A DNA stretch of 14,773 nt from Escherichia phage vB_EcoM-640R3, in the sequence record ON470613; one strand, 5' to 3'. Numbering within the stretch: the stretch's first letter is position 1; each line of letters begins with the position of its first letter. The notes beneath the pieces were generated by a model. The model saw only the letters and a program-made list of their open reading frames with translations, was not told where the DNA came from and did no database searches. The translations under genes were made by a program, and so were the position numbers. This document shows, piece after piece, positions 201-14,773 of the stretch.

Positions 201-1249
201 TCAGCCGTTGTCAGTGTCCAGTGAGTAGTTTTTAAAGCGGATGACCTCCTGACCGAGCCAGCCGTTTATCTCGCGGATCCTGTCCTGTAGCGGGATAAGC
301 TCATTGCGGACAAAGACCTTTGCCACTTTCTCAATATCTCCCAGTGACCCGACGTTCTCCGGCTTGCCGCCCATCAACTGAAAGGGGATGCGGTGCGCGT
401 CCAGCAGGTCAGCGGCGCTGGCTTTTTTGATATTAAAAAAATCGTCCTTCGTTGCCACTTCACTGAGCGGGATAATTTTAATGCCGTCAGCTTTCCCCTG
501 CGGGGCATAGAGAAACAGATTTTTAAAGTTGTTGCGGCCTTTCGACTTAACCATGTTTTCGCGAAGCATTTCGATATCGTTGCGGTCCTGCACGGCATCG
601 GTGACGTACATGATATATCCGGCATGAGCGCCGTTTTCGTAATACTTGCGGCGGAACAGCGTGGCCGACTCATTCAGCCAGGCAGAGTTAAGGGCGCTCA
701 GATATTCTGGCAGGCCGTACAGCTCCTGATTGATATCCGGCTCCAGCAGGTGAAACACGGAGCCGGGCGTGAAAGGTGTCGGCTCGTTGAAGGACGGCAC
801 CCACCAGTAAACATCCTCCTCCACGCCACGACGGGTATATTTTGCCGGTGAGGTTTCCAGTCTGATGACCTTACCGGTGGTGCTGTAACGCTTTTCCAGA
901 AACGCATTACCGAACACCAGAAAATCCAGCACAAAGCGGCTGAAATCCTGCTGGGAAAGCCACGGATGCGGGATAAATGTTGAGGCCAGAATATTACGTT
1001 TGACGTAAATCGGTGAGCTGTGATGCACGGCAGCACGCAGGCTTTTTGCCAGACCGGTAAAGCTGACCGGTGGTTCATACCATCTGCCGTTACTGATGCA
1101 CTCGACGTAATCCAGAATGTCACGGCGGTCGAGTACCGGTACCGGCTCGCCAAAGGTGAATGCTTCCATNNNNNNNNNNNNNNNNNNGGGGCGCTGGCGG
1201 TCATTTTTTTGGCCGCAGGTTGCGGTGTTTTCCCTTTTTTCTTGCTCAT
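201..1249 (-). CDS. Q: Portal (capsid portal vertex) protein, P2 gpQ-like; interrupted by an 18-N gap
   Basis: Six-frame ORF 201..1169 (322 aa) plus the first 20 codons of ORF 698..1249 (MSKKKGKTPQPAAKKMTASA) on the other side of the N run. Start ATG at 1249-1247 overlaps the terminase stop (ATGA). Position after cos and downstream of P matches the P2 P-Q operon. The two pieces are out of frame across the Ns, so the true gap length is not 18. Confidence 0.85.
1170..1187. other. Run of 18 N (assembly gap or masked bases) inside the portal gene
   Basis: Literal n characters at 1170-1187. Flanking portal reading frames differ by a non-multiple of 3. Confidence 0.99.
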
Positions 1250-4107: not shown

Positions 4108-5181
4108 ATGCGCCAGGAAACCCGCTTTAAATTTAATGCCTACCTGTCCCGTGTTGCCGAACTGAACGGCATCGACGCCGGTGATGTGTCGAAAAAATTC
4201 ACCGTTGAACCGTCGGTCACCCAGACCCTGATGAACACCATGCAGGAGTCCTCTGACTTTCTGACCCGCATCAACATTGTGCCGGTCAGCGAAATGAAAG
4301 GGGAAAAAATTGGTATTGGTGTCACCGGCTCCATCGCCAGCACCACCGACACCGCCGGTGGCACCGAGCGTCAGCCGAAGGACTTCTCGAAGCTGGCGTC
4401 AAACAAGTACGAATGCGACCAGATTAACTTCGATTTTTATATCCGCTACAAAACGCTTGACCTGTGGGCGCGTTATCAGGATTTCCAGCTCCGTGTCCGT
4501 AACGCCATTATCAAACGTCAGGCTCTTGATTTAATCATGGCCGGTTTTAACGGTGTGAAGCGTGCCGAAACCTCTGACCGCAGCAGTAACCCGATGCTGC
4601 AGGATGTGGCGGTCGGCTGGCTGCAGAAATACCGCAATGAAGCCCCGGCGCGCGTGATGAGTAAGGTCACTGACGAGGAAGGCCGCACCACCTCTGAGGT
4701 TATCCGCGTGGGTAAGGGCGGTGATTATGCCAGCCTTGATGCACTGGTGATGGATGCGACCAACAACCTGATTGAGCCGTGGTATCAGGAAGACCCTGAC
4801 CTTGTGGTGATTGTGGGGCGTCAGTTACTGGCGGACAAGTATTTCCCCATCGTTAACAAGGAGCAGGACAACAGCGAAATGCTGGCCGCTGACGTCATCA
4901 TCAGCCAGAAACGCATCGGTAACCTGCCAGCGGTACGCGTCCCGTACTTCCCGGCGGATGCGATGCTCATCACGAAGCTGGAAAACCTGTCCATCTACTA
5001 CATGGATGACAGCCATCGCCGCGTGATTGTGGAAAACCCGAAACTCGACCGCGTGGAGAACTACGAGTCAATGAACATTGATTACGTGGTGGAAGACTAC
5101 GCCGCCGGTTGTCTGGTGGAAAAAATTAAGGTCGGTGATTTCTCCACACCGGCTAAGGCGACCGCAGAGCCGGGAGCGTAA
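4108..5181 (+). CDS. N: Major capsid protein, P2 gpN-like
   Basis: 357-aa ORF (MRQETRFKFNAYLSRVAELNGIDAG...), RBS AGGA upstream, immediately after O and before M as in P2. Confidence 0.9.
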   Translation: MRQETRFKFNAYLSRVAELNGIDAGDVSKKFTVEPSVTQTLMNTMQESSDFLTRINIVPVSEMKGEKIGIGVTGSIASTTDTAGGTERQPKDFSKLASNKYECDQINFDFYIRYKTLDLWARYQDFQLRVRNAIIKRQALDLIMAGFNGVKRAETSDRSSNPMLQDVAVGWLQKYRNEAPARVMSKVTDEEGRTTSEVIRVGKGGDYASLDALVMDATNNLIEPWYQEDPDLVVIVGRQLLADKYFPIVNKEQDNSEMLAADVIISQKRIGNLPAVRVPYFPADAMLITKLENLSIYYMDDSHRRVIVENPKLDRVENYESMNIDYVVEDYAAGCLVEKIKVGDFSTPAKATAEPGA

Positions 5182-5184
5182 CCG

Positions 5185-5928
5185 ATGACGAGTCCCGCAC
5201 AGCGCCACATGATGCGGGTCTCGGCAGCGATGACCGCGCAGCGGGAAGCCGCCCCGCTGCGACATGCAACTGTCTATGAGCAGATGCTGGTTAAGCTCGC
5301 CGCAGATCAGCGCACACTGAAAGCGATTTATTCAAAAGAGCTGAAGGCCGCGAAAAAACGCGAACTGCTGCCGTTCTGGTTGCCGTGGGTGAACGGCGTG
5401 CTGGAGCAGGGCAAAGGTGCACAGGATGACATTCTGATGACGGTCATGCTGTGGCGTCTGGATACCGGCGATATTGCCGGTGCGCTGGAGATTGCCCGTT
5501 ATGCCCTGAAGTACGGTCTGACCATGCCGGGTAAACACCGCCGCACTCCGCCGTACATGTTCACCGAGGAGGTGGCGCTTGCGGCCATACGCGCTCACGC
5601 TGCCGGTGAATCCGTGGATACCCGCCTGCTGACGGAGACCCTTGAACTGACCGCCACGGCTGACATGCCTGATGAAGTGCGCGCAAAGCTGCACAAAATC
5701 ACCGGTCTGTTTCTGCGTGACGGTGGTGATGCCGCCGGTGCGCTGGCTCACCTGCAACGTGCGACCCGGCTCGACTGTCAGGCAGGCGTCAAAAAAGAGA
5801 TTGAACGACTGGAGCGGGAGCTGAAACCGAAGCCGGAGCAGCAACCCAAAGCGGCCACCCGTGCCACGCGTAAGACCCGGAGCGTGACACCGGCAAAACG
5901 TGGACGCCCGAAAAAGAAAGCCAGTTAA
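5185..5928 (+). CDS. M: Terminase small (endonuclease) subunit, P2 gpM-like
   Basis: 247-aa ORF starting 3 nt after the N stop, with a basic C-terminal tail (KRGRPKKKAS). Position matches P2 gpM. Confidence 0.85.
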   Translation: MTSPAQRHMMRVSAAMTAQREAAPLRHATVYEQMLVKLAADQRTLKAIYSKELKAAKKRELLPFWLPWVNGVLEQGKGAQDDILMTVMLWRLDTGDIAGALEIARYALKYGLTMPGKHRRTPPYMFTEEVALAAIRAHAAGESVDTRLLTETLELTATADMPDEVRAKLHKITGLFLRDGGDAAGALAHLQRATRLDCQAGVKKEIERLERELKPKPEQQPKAATRATRKTRSVTPAKRGRPKKKAS

Positions 5929-6027
5929 CAACCGAATGCGCCCCGCGCCAGGGCGGCACGCCGGTCAGTGAGGGTGAATCACCTGACACTGCACCGGCGT
6001 CCACCGCCCGACTTTTCAGAGGTAGTC

Positions 6028-6537
6028 ATGATGACGCTGATTATTCCGCGAAAGGAGGCTCCCGTGTCCGGTGAGGGTACGGTGGTCATCCCGCAACCGG
6101 CAGGCGACGAGCCGGTGATTAAAAACACGTTCTTTTTTCCCGATATCGACCCGAAGCGCGTCCGGGAACGTATGCGCCTTGAGCAGACCGTCGCCCCCGC
6201 CCGTCTGCGTGAGGCCATCAAGTCAGGCATGGCTGAAACGAATGCGGAGCTGTACGAGTACCGTGAACAGAAAATTGCCGCCGGTTTTACGCGTCTGGCG
6301 GACGTCCCGGCGGACGATATCGACGGTGAAAGCATCAAAGTTTTTTACTACGAGCGCGCCGTGTGTGCGATGGCGACCGCGTCGCTTTATGAGCGTTATC
6401 GCGGTGTGGATGCCAGTGCAAAAGGCGACAAGAAGGCCGACAGCATAGACAGCACTATTGATGAGCTGTGGCGGGATATGCGCTGGGCAGTGGCGCGTAT
6501 CCAGGACAAGCCGCGCTGCATCGTGAGTCAAATCTGA
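6028..6537 (+). CDS. L: Head completion / stabilisation protein, P2 gpL-like
   Basis: ORF 5968..6537. Chosen start is ATG at 6028 (MMTLIIPRKEAP...), 169 aa, preceded by GAGG. Its stop TGA overlaps the X start. Confidence 0.8.
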   Translation: MMTLIIPRKEAPVSGEGTVVIPQPAGDEPVIKNTFFFPDIDPKRVRERMRLEQTVAPARLREAIKSGMAETNAELYEYREQKIAAGFTRLADVPADDIDGESIKVFYYERAVCAMATASLYERYRGVDASAKGDKKADSIDSTIDELWRDMRWAVARIQDKPRCIVSQI

Positions 6538-7962: not shown

Positions 7963-8375
7963 TGATTGCACTGGTCGTGTTGTTATCGCTGGCGGTGGCG
8001 GGGCTGTTTCTGGTGAAGCATGAAAACGCCAGACTGCGCTACTCGCTGGACAGGGCGAACAGCGTCGCCAGCGGGCAGCAGACGACCATCACCATGCTGA
8101 AAAATCAGCTTCATGTTGCCCTCACCAGGGCAGACAAAAACGAGCTGGCGCAGGTGGCACTGCGTCAGGAACTGGAGAACGCCGCGAAGCGTGAAGCACA
8201 GCGCGAGAAAACCATCACGAGGTTACTGAATGAAAACGAAGATTTTCGCCGCTGGTACGGCGCTGGCCTGCCTGATGCTGTGCGCCGGTTGCACCAGCGC
8301 CCGGCCTGCGCCGACGCCAGTGATTGTCCACAACGCCTGCCCGAAAGTGAGCCTTTGCCCGATGCCGGGCAGTGA
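7950..8375 (+). CDS. lysB: Inner-membrane spanin (Rz-like), P2 LysB-like
   Basis: 141-aa ORF with an N-terminal transmembrane segment (MSKLMIALVVLLSLAVAGLFLV), a coiled-coil-like middle and a proline-rich C-terminus. Overlaps the lysA 3' end. Confidence 0.8.
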   Translation: MSKLMIALVVLLSLAVAGLFLVKHENARLRYSLDRANSVASGQQTTITMLKNQLHVALTRADKNELAQVALRQELENAAKREAQREKTITRLLNENEDFRRWYGAGLPDAVRRLHQRPACADASDCPQRLPESEPLPDAGQ

Positions 8376-11354: not shown

Positions 11355-11958
11355 TTCGCGCCTGCTGCCGACCGGCTCATCACCGCTTGAAGTTGCCGCC
11401 GCAAAAGCCTGTGCGGAAATTGAAAAAACGCCGGTCAGTATTCGTGAACTGTGGAACCCGGATACCTGTCCGGCAAATCTGCTGTCGTGGCTGGCGTGGT
11501 CATTTTCGGTTGACCGCTGGGATGATAAGTGGCCGGAAGCGACAAAACGCGCTGTTATCCGCGATGCGTATTTCATTCACTGCCATAAGGGCACTATAGG
11601 CGCAATCCGGCGTGTGGTGGAGCCGCTCGGCTATCTGATTGAGGTGAGGGAGTGGTGGCAGCTCAACGAGGAACCGGGGACGTTCCGCATCGTTGTTGGC
11701 GTGCTTGAGCAGGGTATTACCGAGGAAATGTATCAGGAGCTGGAGCGTCTCGTTGCTGATGCAAAACCTGCAAGCCGCCATCTGACGGGACTGGCTATCA
11801 GTTTAAGTACAACCGGCAACATTTTTGCCGGTGCGGGATGCTATCACGGCGACGCCCTGACGGTTTATCCCTACACCCCGGAGGCCATTATTGTCGGAGG
11901 GGATTATTTCCCGGCCTCGGCCATTCATTTAATTGATAACCTGAGAGTAAACGCATGA
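11347..11958 (+). CDS. I: Baseplate protein, P2 gpI-like
   Basis: 203-aa ORF overlapping the J 3' end by 8 nt and the H start by 4 nt. Somewhat longer than the P2 gpI I recall (about 176 aa). Confidence 0.75.
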   Translation: MSDSRLLPTGSSPLEVAAAKACAEIEKTPVSIRELWNPDTCPANLLSWLAWSFSVDRWDDKWPEATKRAVIRDAYFIHCHKGTIGAIRRVVEPLGYLIEVREWWQLNEEPGTFRIVVGVLEQGITEEMYQELERLVADAKPASRHLTGLAISLSTTGNIFAGAGCYHGDALTVYPYTPEAIIVGGDYFPASAIHLIDNLRVNA

Positions 11959-13250
11959 CAGTGAAATACTACGCCATTCTGACTAATCAGGGCGCAGCAC
12001 GGCTGGCTAACGCGACGATGCTTGGCAGTAAGCTGAATCTGACGCAAATGGCCGTTGGTGATGCGAATGGTGTCTTGCCGACACCAGACCCGGCACAGAC
12101 AAAACTGATTAATCAGAAACGCATTGCACCGCTGAATCTTCTGAGTGTTGACCCGAACAACCAGAGCCAGATTATTGCGGAGCAAATCATCCCTGAGAAC
12201 GAGGGCGGATTCTGGATCCGTGAGATTGGGCTTTATGATGATGAAGGCGTACTCATTGCGGTGGCCAACTGCCCGGAAACGTACAAACCGCAGTTACAGG
12301 AAGGCAGTGGTCGTACCCAGACTATCCGCATGATTCTGGTTGTCACGAATATCGAAGCCATCACGCTGAAAATCGACCCGTCGGTGGTACTGGCGACCCG
12401 TAAATATGTGGATGATGAAGTCCTGGAATTAAGGCTGTATGTGGATGACCAGATGAGAAACCACATTGCCGCACAGGATCCTCATACCCAGTATGCACAG
12501 AAACATAATCCGACATTTACCGGAGAACCAAAAGCCCCGACGCCTGCCGCAGGAAATAACACCACGCGGATTGCGACCACTGAGTTTGTTCAGGCCGCTA
12601 TTACCGCTCTGATTAACGGCGCGCCAGCCACGCTGGACACACTGAAAGAAATTGCCGCAGCCATTAACAATGACCCGAAATTCAGCACCACTATTAACAA
12701 TGCGCTGTCAGGTAAGCAGCCACTGGATGAGACGCTGACTCATTTGAGCGGAAAGGATGTTGCCGGCCTTCTCGCATACCTTGGTTTGGGAGAAACGATA
12801 AATAGAGCCTCCAGAGCTATGCAGAAATCGGCTAATGGATCTGATATTTCTGATGTATCAGCCTTCCGAAATGCGCTCCAGTTAGGGACCGCTGCAACAC
12901 GAGATGTTGGAGCAGATAATGCCTCGAAGTTACTGGATTTAGACAGCTTCAGGTCAATGATGTCAGGTAATGGCTACATCTACATTCCATGCATTGCGAC
13001 GACAGGAAACCCGGTGAAACTTATGTTGCAGTGGGGAACGGTGGCAACACAAAAGGGAGCTGATGCTGGATATGCCTTACCATTTGCTTTTCCCTATGCA
13101 GGCTTGTTTGCGACCGGAAACCGTGGAACATCTGGCTACAATGCCGCGATGAATGTGCGTATTGCCAGCAGAACGCATATCAGTATTCAGAACTGGTCGC
13201 CATCCGGAGAGGGCACCGAAGATTGTTGTTTTATCGCGCTGGGGTATTAA
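11955..13250 (+). CDS. H: Tail fibre protein, P2 gpH-like constant N-terminal part fused to a variable receptor-binding C-terminal module
   Basis: 431-aa ORF. The N-terminal ~280 aa has the conserved P2 H / Mu S type tail-fibre N-terminus (...GFWIREIGLYDDEGVLIAVANCPETYKPQLQEGSGRTQTIRMILVV...). The C-terminal ~150 aa begins right after the recombination site at 12769-12794 and is AT-richer by eye. Confidence 0.85.
   Translation: MTVKYYAILTNQGAARLANATMLGSKLNLTQMAVGDANGVLPTPDPAQTKLINQKRIAPLNLLSVDPNNQSQIIAEQIIPENEGGFWIREIGLYDDEGVLIAVANCPETYKPQLQEGSGRTQTIRMILVVTNIEAITLKIDPSVVLATRKYVDDEVLELRLYVDDQMRNHIAAQDPHTQYAQKHNPTFTGEPKAPTPAAGNNTTRIATTEFVQAAITALINGAPATLDTLKEIAAAINNDPKFSTTINNALSGKQPLDETLTHLSGKDVAGLLAYLGLGETINRASRAMQKSANGSDISDVSAFRNALQLGTAATRDVGADNASKLLDLDSFRSMMSGNGYIYIPCIATTGNPVKLMLQWGTVATQKGADAGYALPFAFPYAGLFATGNRGTSGYNAAMNVRIASRTHISIQNWSPSGEGTEDCCFIALGY
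12769..12794 (+). repeat. Left crossover site of invertible tail-fibre segment (hix/gix-like 26-bp site inside H)
   Basis: TTCTCGCATACC-TT-GGTTTGGGAGAA. Its inverted partner at 14720-14745 shares 21/26 positions, including an identical 14-bp arm TTGGTTTGGGAGAA in the same codon phase (encodes LGLGE in H, VGLGE in the minus-strand ORF). Confidence 0.65.
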
Positions 13251-13252
13251 GA

Positions 13253-13669
13253 ATGAATAAATTTTATAAAGGCTCTTTCTATCCGAAAGCACTAAAAGAG
13301 GTATATATCAGCGCCGGTTCATGGCCTGAAAATGGCGTTGATGTTGATGATGAAACAATAGCAATTTACACAGGCGTAGCGCCAGAAGGCAAAACGCTGG
13401 GGGCTGATAAAAATGGTAATCCTGCATGGATTGATATCCCGCCACTCTCCGCTGAACAACAGATTATTCAGGCTGAACAGAAAAGAACGGTATTGCGTTC
13501 AATGGCTGATAAGGAAATAGTCTGGAGACAGGATGCTTTTGATGCGGAAATCGCGACGGCAGAAGAAACCGCCGCGTTGTCTGAATGGAAAAAATATCGG
13601 GTCTTACTGATGCGCGTTGATACATCAAATCCCGTCTGGCCTACGCCTCCGGGGGAGCAGGCCAATTGA
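13253..13669 (+). CDS. G: Tail fibre assembly chaperone, P2 gpG-like
   Basis: ORF 13223..13669. Chosen start is ATG at 13253 (MNKFYKG...), 138 aa, 3 nt after the H stop. C-terminus ends in the WPTPPG motif typical of tail-fibre assembly proteins. Confidence 0.8.
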   Translation: MNKFYKGSFYPKALKEVYISAGSWPENGVDVDDETIAIYTGVAPEGKTLGADKNGNPAWIDIPPLSAEQQIIQAEQKRTVLRSMADKEIVWRQDAFDAEIATAEETAALSEWKKYRVLLMRVDTSNPVWPTPPGEQAN

Positions 13670-14261
13670 TATCCGGCGCGGTGCTGGTATCAGTTACCGT
13701 CACCGCGTCAATGTAATCCAGCACGACGTTAAGCCGGGTGGTTTCTGTCTGCGTCAGTTTTCGCCCGGCCTGCAATTTCAGTTGAATCAGATTAATGGAA
13801 GCCATTGCAGTATCAATCAGTGACTGTCGCTGTGTTTCTGCCGCGCCTACTGCGGCGCTATGCTGTGCCTCAGTATCTGTCACCCATTTCTCACCATCCC
13901 ATTCATCGTATGGCGTTAACGGGGCGACAGTGGTTGTGTTTTCAGGGTAATCCCCCGGAGTGGTGATTTCTGCTGCCTCACGGGTTTCTGTGTTATAGAC
14001 TGTCTCACCCCGATGGTCCGGCACGTACTCCCACGCGGTCAGGTCGGCTGTGCGGCAAATTGCATAACCAGCCCGCCTTTCCCCGGGGGCATCAGTGCAT
14101 GAATGTGCAGGAAGGCCAACGCCCACAGCCAGATATTCGGTTGACGTGCAAAGGTATTCCCGCGTCTTATTATCGTAGCTGTGGACAACAACCTCTCCTG
14201 CAACTGTTGCCAGCCGCGATTCATTCAGCACCGCTGTAGTCATGGTTTTCTTGCTCATCAT
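13641..14261 (-). CDS. Alternative tail fibre assembly chaperone (Tfa/U'-like), minus strand
   Basis: 206-aa ORF ending in INWPAPPEA, the conserved tail-fibre-assembly C-terminal motif. Its start ATG overlaps the stop of the upstream minus-strand fibre ORF (ATGA), and its 3' end overlaps the G 3' end by 29 bp, convergent. Confidence 0.8.
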   Translation of the reverse strand: MMSKKTMTTAVLNESRLATVAGEVVVHSYDNKTREYLCTSTEYLAVGVGLPAHSCTDAPGERRAGYAICRTADLTAWEYVPDHRGETVYNTETREAAEITTPGDYPENTTTVAPLTPYDEWDGEKWVTDTEAQHSAAVGAAETQRQSLIDTAMASINLIQLKLQAGRKLTQTETTRLNVVLDYIDAVTVTDTSTAPDINWPAPPEA

Positions 14262-14773
14262 GCAGCCCTTACGATGTAGTTAAATGCAATGTTACGTGGC
14301 CTTGCATAACCCAGATACTGAATCCCCCAGGCTCCCACTGGAACGGGGTTCCAGATATGTTCTGTAGGTATACTTTTCGCTCTGAGAATATCTGAATTGG
14401 TTTCAGTTTTATCCCATCCCAGCAGGGCAATGTCGTTTACCGAAAACTGCACCACGCTGTCGGGTGATATATTGGCTTCCTGAACCAGATAAGAGCCTTT
14501 TTGCCACGACAACAACGTCCGGCTACTGTCCACTCCGCGCCCGTCATCCCAGCCACGAATAAATTCACCACGTAAATCAGGCAATATATTTGTCGGGTAA
14601 GCCTTTGCCAGTTCCGGGTATTCTTCAGCAGAAAATGCCGCCCCGTTGCATTTCAGCCAGCCTGTTGGCAGTGTGGCTGAAGGCCACGGAACAGGCACAC
14701 CAACGGGTAATACAGAGCCTTCTCCCAAACCAACGTTTATGAAAATGCAGAGATAACGGGCAAGTGGCATCAT
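14258..14773 (-). CDS. Alternative tail-fibre C-terminal receptor-binding module with phage tail-collar-like domain (Sv'-like); promoterless cassette, 5' end at or beyond the window edge
   Basis: 171-aa minus-strand ORF open to the window end. The motif LPTGWLKCNGAAFSAEEYPELAKAYP resembles the phage tail collar domain. The crossover site lies at codons 10-18, so the functional product is predicted only after inversion fuses it to the H N-terminus. Confidence 0.7.
   Translation of the reverse strand: MMPLARYLCIFINVGLGEGSVLPVGVPVPWPSATLPTGWLKCNGAAFSAEEYPELAKAYPTNILPDLRGEFIRGWDDGRGVDSSRTLLSWQKGSYLVQEANISPDSVVQFSVNDIALLGWDKTETNSDILRAKSIPTEHIWNPVPVGAWGIQYLGYARPRNIAFNYIVRAA
14720..14745 (-). repeat. 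Right crossover site of invertible tail-fibre segment (hix/gix-like)
   Basis: Plus strand reads TTCTCCCAAACC-AA-CGTTTATGAAAA; minus strand reads TTTTCATAAACG-TT-GGTTTGGGAGAA. The AAACC-AA-(C/G)GTTT core resembles the Hin/Gin/Cin/Pin site architecture as I recall it. Confidence 0.65.

Follow-up and report, generated by a model that had tools for sequence, protein, structure and literature searches.

The question raised by the right-hand end of this stretch of DNA is whether a site-specific invertase lies just beyond it and whether the tail-fibre switch that such an enzyme would serve can still turn. The window, by which the whole analysed stretch of 14,773 nt from Escherichia phage vB_EcoM-640R3 (sequence record ON470613) is meant, had been described in advance as holding both crossover sites of an inversion system and no recombinase, with 28 bp left after the right-hand site. 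Both statements are borne out: an inverted-repeat search returns two arms at 12766-12794 and 14720-14748 (29 nt, 79% complementary), no recombinase is found in the window by tblastn with the reconstructed invertase described below (best E = 0.93), and positions 14746-14773 make up 28 bp. The features of the window on which the argument depends are as follows.

11955..13250, plus strand: tail-fibre gene, P2 H-like, 431 aa (ORF list; Pfam Phage_tail_fib 5.8e-62, Gp53-like_C 1.1e-7)
12769-12794: left 26-bp crossover site, TTCTCGCATACC-TT-GGTTTGGGAGAA, within the tail-fibre gene (inverted-repeat search)
12782..14732: invertible segment, about 1.95 kb from centre to centre (exact reversal in EJN001)
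13253..13669, plus strand: tail-fibre assembly gene, 138 aa, for the currently expressed fibre tip (Pfam Caudo_TAP 9.7e-32; RefSeq annotation)
13641..14243, minus strand: alternative tail-fibre assembly gene, 200 aa (Pfam Caudo_TAP 2.4e-31; RefSeq annotation)
14258..14773, minus strand: alternative fibre C-terminal cassette, a 171-aa StfE-like ORF (ORF list; Pfam Collar 2.7e-14; homology to e14 StfE)
14720-14745: right 26-bp crossover site, TTCTCCCAAACC-AA-CGTTTATGAAAA (inverted-repeat search; matches the e14 site)
14746-14773, plus strand: start of the site-to-invertase spacer, the first 28 nt of 55 nt

Both sites are imperfect palindromes of 26 bp with a 12-2-12 design, and since their central dinucleotides on the plus strand are complementary, TT on the left and AA on the right, they lie in inverted orientation to each other. 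A 14-mer common to the two, TTCTCCCAAACCAA, is found in exactly two copies in the window, one per strand, with 0.08 copies expected by chance. The left site is read through by the fibre gene, in whose frame it is translated as L-L-A-Y-L-G-L-G-E, and the right edge of the window, read directly, runs ...GAGCC TTCTCCCAAACC AA CGTTTATGAAAA TGCAGAGATAACGGGCAAGTGGCATCAT. The segment 14720-14773 is very probably the right recombination site of a tail-fibre inversion switch of the Pin/Gin/Cin type, together with the first half of the spacer that leads to its invertase. A simple sigma-70 consensus scan, which is a weak test, gave no promoter in the spacer between site and invertase ATG.

The sites enclose two alternative fibre C-termini and two assembly-chaperone genes arranged head to head. 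The tail-fibre gene, labelled “phage tail protein” in RefSeq, has a constant N-terminal part that extends to the left site and a variable C-terminal part, which falls within the invertible segment. The silent cassette on the minus strand (14258-14773) is annotated as a separate 171-aa “phage tail protein”; the ATG of this ORF is formed by the final three bases of the window and lies beyond the invertible segment. Over its first 19 residues, MMPLARYLCIFINVGLGEG, the ORF resembles the N-terminus of e14 StfE. Inversion joins this start to the other fibre tip, as seen in a 169-aa gp53-like ORF of strain EJN001. A chimera of this kind, starting at the last base of the window, is analogous to the e14 StfE2 chimera, which was reported to block adsorption of phage T2 (PMC12529663).

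The sequence to the right of the window is provided by the reference region L001 (NZ_CP023834.1), in which the window corresponds to 1816-16574 and is 100% identical except for a run of 18 N; positions in the right flank are extrapolated from it, window x being L001 x - 1801. The full-length window is present at the same identity in 50 complete E. coli chromosomes, and the matches ranked next reach about 98%. In L001, a spacer of 27 nt separates the end of the window from the sequence ATG CTT ATT GGC TAT GTA CGC GTG TCA ACA AAT, which places the ATG of a Pin/Gin/Cin-type invertase gene at extrapolated position 14801, 28 nt past the last window base, and the same is found in 50/50 of the identical genomes. 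Codons 1-11 (extrapolated 14801-14833) spell MLIGYVRVSTN, the canonical Gin/Cin/Pin N-terminus with the catalytic Ser9.

Directly after codon 11, again in 50/50 identical genomes, the gene is cut by the 2,455-bp element ISEc22 (extrapolated 14834-17288), the count being based on the fact that the accessions matching the full window are all contained in the list obtained with the IS-junction query. At the split junction (extrapolated 14834), the sequence reads ...GTGTCAACAAAT (tail also ...TCAACAAAT) and continues into the IS end GTAAGCGTCGTC, where the uninterrupted gene has GACCAGAACACG. The element has the features of the IS66 family: a size of about 2.5 kb, GTAAGCG terminal inverted repeats (GTAAGCG...CGCTTAC; at greater length GTAAGCGT.../...ACGCTTAC), an 8-bp target duplication, CAACAAAT, on its flanks, and the order tnpA, tnpB, transposase, the last of these being an ISEc22-family transposase which RefSeq marks as frameshifted. 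The remaining 186 codons and the stop are found at extrapolated 17297-17857, some 2.46-2.5 kb from the window edge, and 59 nt separate the stop from the tail sheath gene, which begins at extrapolated 17917.

RefSeq lists the distal part as WP_062914736.1, a “recombinase family protein” of 200 aa (L001 19056-19658, extrapolated 17255-17857) that carries no pseudogene flag. It starts within the right end of ISEc22 and is without Ser9, so that the entry is an N-terminally truncated invertase and should not count as a functional recombinase. In the genomes that bear the window, Ser9 is cut off from the rest of the catalytic domain, with which it is contiguous only in IS-free relatives and in the sequence reconstructed in silico; the invertase gene of the lineage carrying the exact window is a pseudogene. 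With the peptide MLIGYVRVSTN, which contains the catalytic serine, parted from the 186 residues that follow it, the cell would have no active enzyme from this gene, as far as can be judged from sequence. The prediction of an invertase just past the 3' edge was therefore right about the gene, which belongs to the Gin/Cin/Pin family and starts 28 nt beyond the window in the arrangement known from e14 pinE, but not about its integrity; the intact ORF of about 190 aa which the preliminary description proposed to look for within 1 kb to the right of position 14773 is absent from all 50 identical complete genomes.

The nature of the split gene becomes clear when ISEc22 and one copy of the duplication are removed in silico, which restores an ORF of 197 aa. 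The reconstructed protein consists of a Resolvase domain (Pfam 3e-52, residues 3-135) followed by HTH_7 (5e-13, 138-181), matches the Mu Gin structures 3uj3/4m6f with E about 1e-94, and is identical to e14 PinE at 87.8%, to P1 Cin at 81%, to Gin at 80.1% and to PinR at 37.7% of positions. That the reconstruction corresponds to a real gene is shown by a deposited P2-like phage whose intact 197-aa gene product is 99% identical, and by strain 600055, in which the empty site, i.e. the uninterrupted junction, is found at 100% identity. The junction of site and invertase is covered to at least 80% in 1,541 of 5,426 complete E. coli genomes. The motif Q-x-x-R-L, described as an invertase-specific surface for contact with Fis (Hin Q151, R154, L155; McLean et al. 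2013, PMC3798978), is present in the reconstructed protein as Q149, R152 and L153 within E-Q-A-G-R-L-L at 148-154. In size, in the pairing of Resolvase with HTH_7, in its sites and in its predicted Fis-contact residues, the reconstructed gene has the sequence characteristics of the Din family (Gin/Cin/Pin/Hin).

The insertion affects more than the coding sequence. In the GenBank record of P1, the Cin enhancer is annotated at nt 19-90 of cin, and the 5' ends of cin, pinE and the reconstructed gene can be aligned without gaps, with nt 19-90 being 81% identical to P1 over 72 bp. A match to the Fis consensus, GCGCAGGATGTGAGC, is found at nt 71-85 and is identical in P1. ISEc22 is inserted after nt 33, that is, inside the stretch homologous to the enhancer, at a point which, going by the hin sequence, we take to be within the first Fis site, GTGTCAACAAATGAC. 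In the case of the Hin enhancer, two Fis dimers 47 bp apart are required, and inversion by wild-type Hin is undetectable without Fis (PMC3798978). As the element interrupts the 72-bp stretch homologous to the P1 enhancer, the cis enhancer has probably been disabled too.

Because the flank has been read from other genomes, it has to be asked whether the source of the window itself carries the insertion. The N run sets the source apart from the complete RefSeq genomes, and a scan of the species-representative genomes for an exact 40-mer gave no match. The IS is present in all 50 complete genomes that are identical over 14.7 kb, and the closest IMG/VR contig (L021), which differs from the window by one indel, likewise continues into the IS, of which it covers about 100 nt before it ends; from this we infer that the window's own source very probably carries the split invertase. 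A source genome with an intact invertase at the right site and a fully active switch would be in keeping with how common the intact arrangement is, both in the 1,541 E. coli genomes with at least 80% junction coverage, strain 600055 reaching 100%, and in IMG/VR, where the ten relatives with the exact 40-mer of the window end are mostly IS-free (7/10 with a readable flank). The genomes with an intact gene, however, share no more than about 96-98% identity with the window along its length, and set against the 50/50 count at 100% identity this makes an active switch in the source very unlikely.

With an IS-split invertase in the source, the preliminary description would have the fibre locked in its current orientation and the minus-strand module silent. 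The orientation of the segment in other genomes supports this only in part. Among the roughly 82 IS-bearing genomes, the IS is joined to a segment in the window orientation in 60, EJN001 and EBJ001 have the opposite orientation (100% over a 616-nt diagnostic query), and in 11899A_LBHALD a flipped junction is joined to the same IS in rearranged form. In EJN001 (L003), the part corresponding to L001 14579-16534 (window 12778-14733) is exactly reversed between flanks that are 100% identical to L001, the breakpoints fall in the 14-bp core common to both sites, and the fibre gene encodes 433 aa with the other C-terminus. Both orientations also exist among relatives with an intact gene, with 600055 and CUVET16-819 arranged as in the window and 720632, B27, L016 and LS992171 flipped. 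Thus, both orientations are found, with breakpoints at the sites.

These flips can be placed in time relative to the insertion. The reversed segment of EJN001 is of the identical allele, without the SNP that is seen in a flipped IS-free relative, and as one IS insertion takes place in one molecule, the existence of both orientations with the identical allele means that at least one inversion post-dates the insertion. The degraded invertase foreseen as a fallback applies, but “locked” is too strong a word in view of three flipped IS-bearing genomes. In all likelihood, the fibre is essentially frozen in the H orientation of the window apart from rare inversions: loss of the enzyme, probably accompanied by loss of the cis enhancer, would hold the fibre in place, with rare later inversions occurring at the same sites.

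The third flipped genome has an unusual layout. In NZ_CP130447.1 (11899A_LBHALD), the flipped junction with the first ~190 nt of ISEc22 (2,611,842-2,612,371) and the 3' part of the invertase (1,620,168-1,620,728) are on opposite strands and about 1 Mb apart, which suggests a large chromosomal rearrangement via ISEc22 copies.

It could also be argued that the switch is wholly dead and that the three flipped assemblies are artefacts, products of RecA-type recombination or the result of an imported flipped segment. This would agree with no intact Din-type invertase being detectable in EJN001 and with an enhancer that, from its sequence, is probably disrupted, and EJN001 and EBJ001, which belong to a single study, may go back to one event. 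Against it, the breakpoints are located exactly in the 14-bp core, which is too short for efficient homologous recombination or for confusion of an assembler, import is contradicted by the identical allele without the SNP of the flipped intact-gene relative, and the flipped junction joined to the IS is also present in 11899A_LBHALD, from a different study. A completely dead switch is accordingly regarded as quite unlikely.

If the segment is essentially frozen and has nevertheless been inverted on rare occasions, the recombination was presumably the work of a related serine invertase acting in trans, which has since been lost from the flipped genomes or is too divergent to detect there. A search of the flipped EJN001 genome by blastn gave no trans-acting invertase, the only other similar sequence being a 168-bp remnant of pinH. 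Several resident candidates were considered and rejected. PinE of e14 was dismissed as the trans enzyme because e14 is missing from strain 4/2-1, in which icd is directly followed by iraM. The only plasmid of EJN001 (IncX3 pNDM5) encodes a resolvase that is just 24% identical. A second chromosomal homologue, indicated by two places in blastn, turned out to be the pinH remnant adjoining ypjA, in 4/2-1 as well as in EJN001.

This remnant (168-240 bp, adjoining ypjA) is 81% identical to nt 124-263 of the invertase and is located at 2,792,164-2,792,331 in NZ_CP023834.1, at 3,399,901-3,400,068 in NZ_CP086338.1 and at 8066-8305 of the K-12 region L007. It probably explains the near-universal weak match in 4,678 of 5,426 E. 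coli genomes.

A different source of trans activity would be a divergent resident serine recombinase of the PinQ/PinR class, flipping the segment at low frequency in place of a lost Din-type invertase. PinQ, which is 38% identical to PinE, is reported to invert the P segment of e14 (Kirigo et al. 2025, PMC12529663), and the repeats of that segment, TTGGTTTGGGAGAAGG and CCTTCTCCCAAACCAA, have the same 14-bp core as the sites of the window. Moreover, PinR at 37.7% identity is invisible to blastn, so that a blastn search of the genomes would miss such a gene. On the other hand, the Rac site is empty in 4/2-1 (ttcA next to uspF), a strain with the window orientation and not a flipped genome, which led to the rejection of Rac PinR as the trans enzyme, and the Qin-like prophage at potB, also considered as a source, has no serine recombinase in 4/2-1. 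Furthermore, pinE mutants are reported to be locked at native levels of PinQ (PMC12529663). Inversion by a recombinase of this class is thus considered unlikely, and a related Din-type invertase that was lost or escaped detection is presumed instead. A broader idea is that heterologous or enhancer-independent recombinases, for example PinQ/PinR-like ones, service orphan fibre switches in trans and that the host might keep such switches for a StfE2-like function; this is a speculation to which we give little credence.

As a side observation, the lambdoid prophage at potB (L004, NZ_CP023834.1 1,195,001-1,245,000; locus 34032-42601) has a side-tail-fibre region that is disrupted by a group II intron (ltrA) and by fragments of IS3/IS629. 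Its fibre and tfa genes are partial and the invertase is absent.

Comparison with described inversion systems shows that the closest relative is the Pin/P system of e14, and the module is an e14-type Pin/P-segment cassette within a P2-like late operon. This assignment follows from the right site, which is identical in 26/26 positions to the K-12 site adjoining pinE, and from the homologous spacer between site and ATG. As in e14, the invertase (87.8% aa and 85% nt identity to PinE) reads away from the segment, two fibre tips and two tfa genes face each other head to head, and the start of a StfE-like ORF is located beyond the segment. In contrast to e14, which is located at icd, the cassette here belongs to a P2-like myovirus prophage by fieF/pfkA, the invertase has a C-terminal tail that is longer by 13 residues, one fibre tip is Gp53-like and not StfP-like, and the gene is split by ISEc22.

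The G segment of Mu shares with the locus an invertase that adjoins the right site and reads away from it (Gin, 80.1% aa identity, same domain pair) and the principle of changing host range by means of alternative fibre C-termini. It differs in the length of the segment, about 1.95 kb here vs ~3 kb in Mu (PMC12529663), in its fibre modules and in that the cis gene is inactivated here. With the C segment of P1, the locus has in common an invertase at 81% aa identity to Cin, sites of the 12-2-12 design (cixL/cixR) and an enhancer region that can be aligned without gaps; cin is, however, on the opposite side, with its 3' end at cixL, and the enhancer-homologous stretch is cut only here. Hin of Salmonella belongs to the same enzyme family, with a similar HTH (Hin DNA-binding domain 1hcr, E 9e-9) and the Q-x-x-R-L motif. 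The hin gene is located inside its own invertible segment and switches a promoter and not a coding-sequence cassette. The statement that the invertase lies directly beside the right-hand site in Mu, P1, e14 and Salmonella is thus correct for Mu and e14 but has to be amended for P1, where it is at the other end, and for Salmonella, where it is inside the segment. Intact relatives of the locus itself, namely Salmonella phage MET_P1_103_31 and E. coli 600055 and 720632, have an invertase and junction that are 99-100% identical and are found in both orientations; they are without ISEc22 and diverge by 2-3% over the rest of the window.

The locus therefore represents a degraded copy of a known Din-family architecture and no new kind of system, and our understanding of Din-family inversion is unchanged by it. 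The step from two hix-like sites to an adjoining invertase was sound, yet the gene is IS-split in this clinical E. coli lineage, and the fibre specificity of the prophage remnant is effectively fixed. The rare flipped genomes provide a small natural data point on the inversion of orphan invertible segments in trans.

The wider surroundings show that the window is the late region of a defective P2-like prophage. According to the RefSeq annotation of the identical region, a P2-like (Peduoviridae-type) gene order is present, in which portal and terminase are divergent from scaffold, capsid, small terminase, head completion, lysis, baseplate V-W-J-I, H, sheath and tube; the invertible module and the invertase come after the fibre genes and before the sheath gene. 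The 18 N at 1170-1187 stand for four bases (TTTC) of the otherwise identical reference. An apparently broken or frameshifted portal gene (~215-1249, minus strand) was rejected as an artefact of this run, which is due to masking or scaffolding and does not reflect a mutation.

Apart from the invertase, the prophage is decaying at other places, by ISEc12 in its replication gene and in the form of deletion variants. ISEc12, an IS21-family element with istA/istB, occupies L001 1-1575, about 240 bp left of the window, and is also found at 2128-5915 of L013; in L001 it truncates a P2-type replication endonuclease gene, which renders the prophage defective independently of the lesion in the invertase. 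In the deletion variant, seen in L013 (NZ_CP093919.1, strain ST167; 5169-6236) and in the IMG/VR contig L022, ISEc12 directly adjoins the point that corresponds to window position 14680. This variant has lost the 14.7-kb window region; what is left is the right site and the IS-split invertase, preceded by about 40 bp of the cassette. The deletion type apparently accounts for about 19 complete genomes (81 - 60 - 2).
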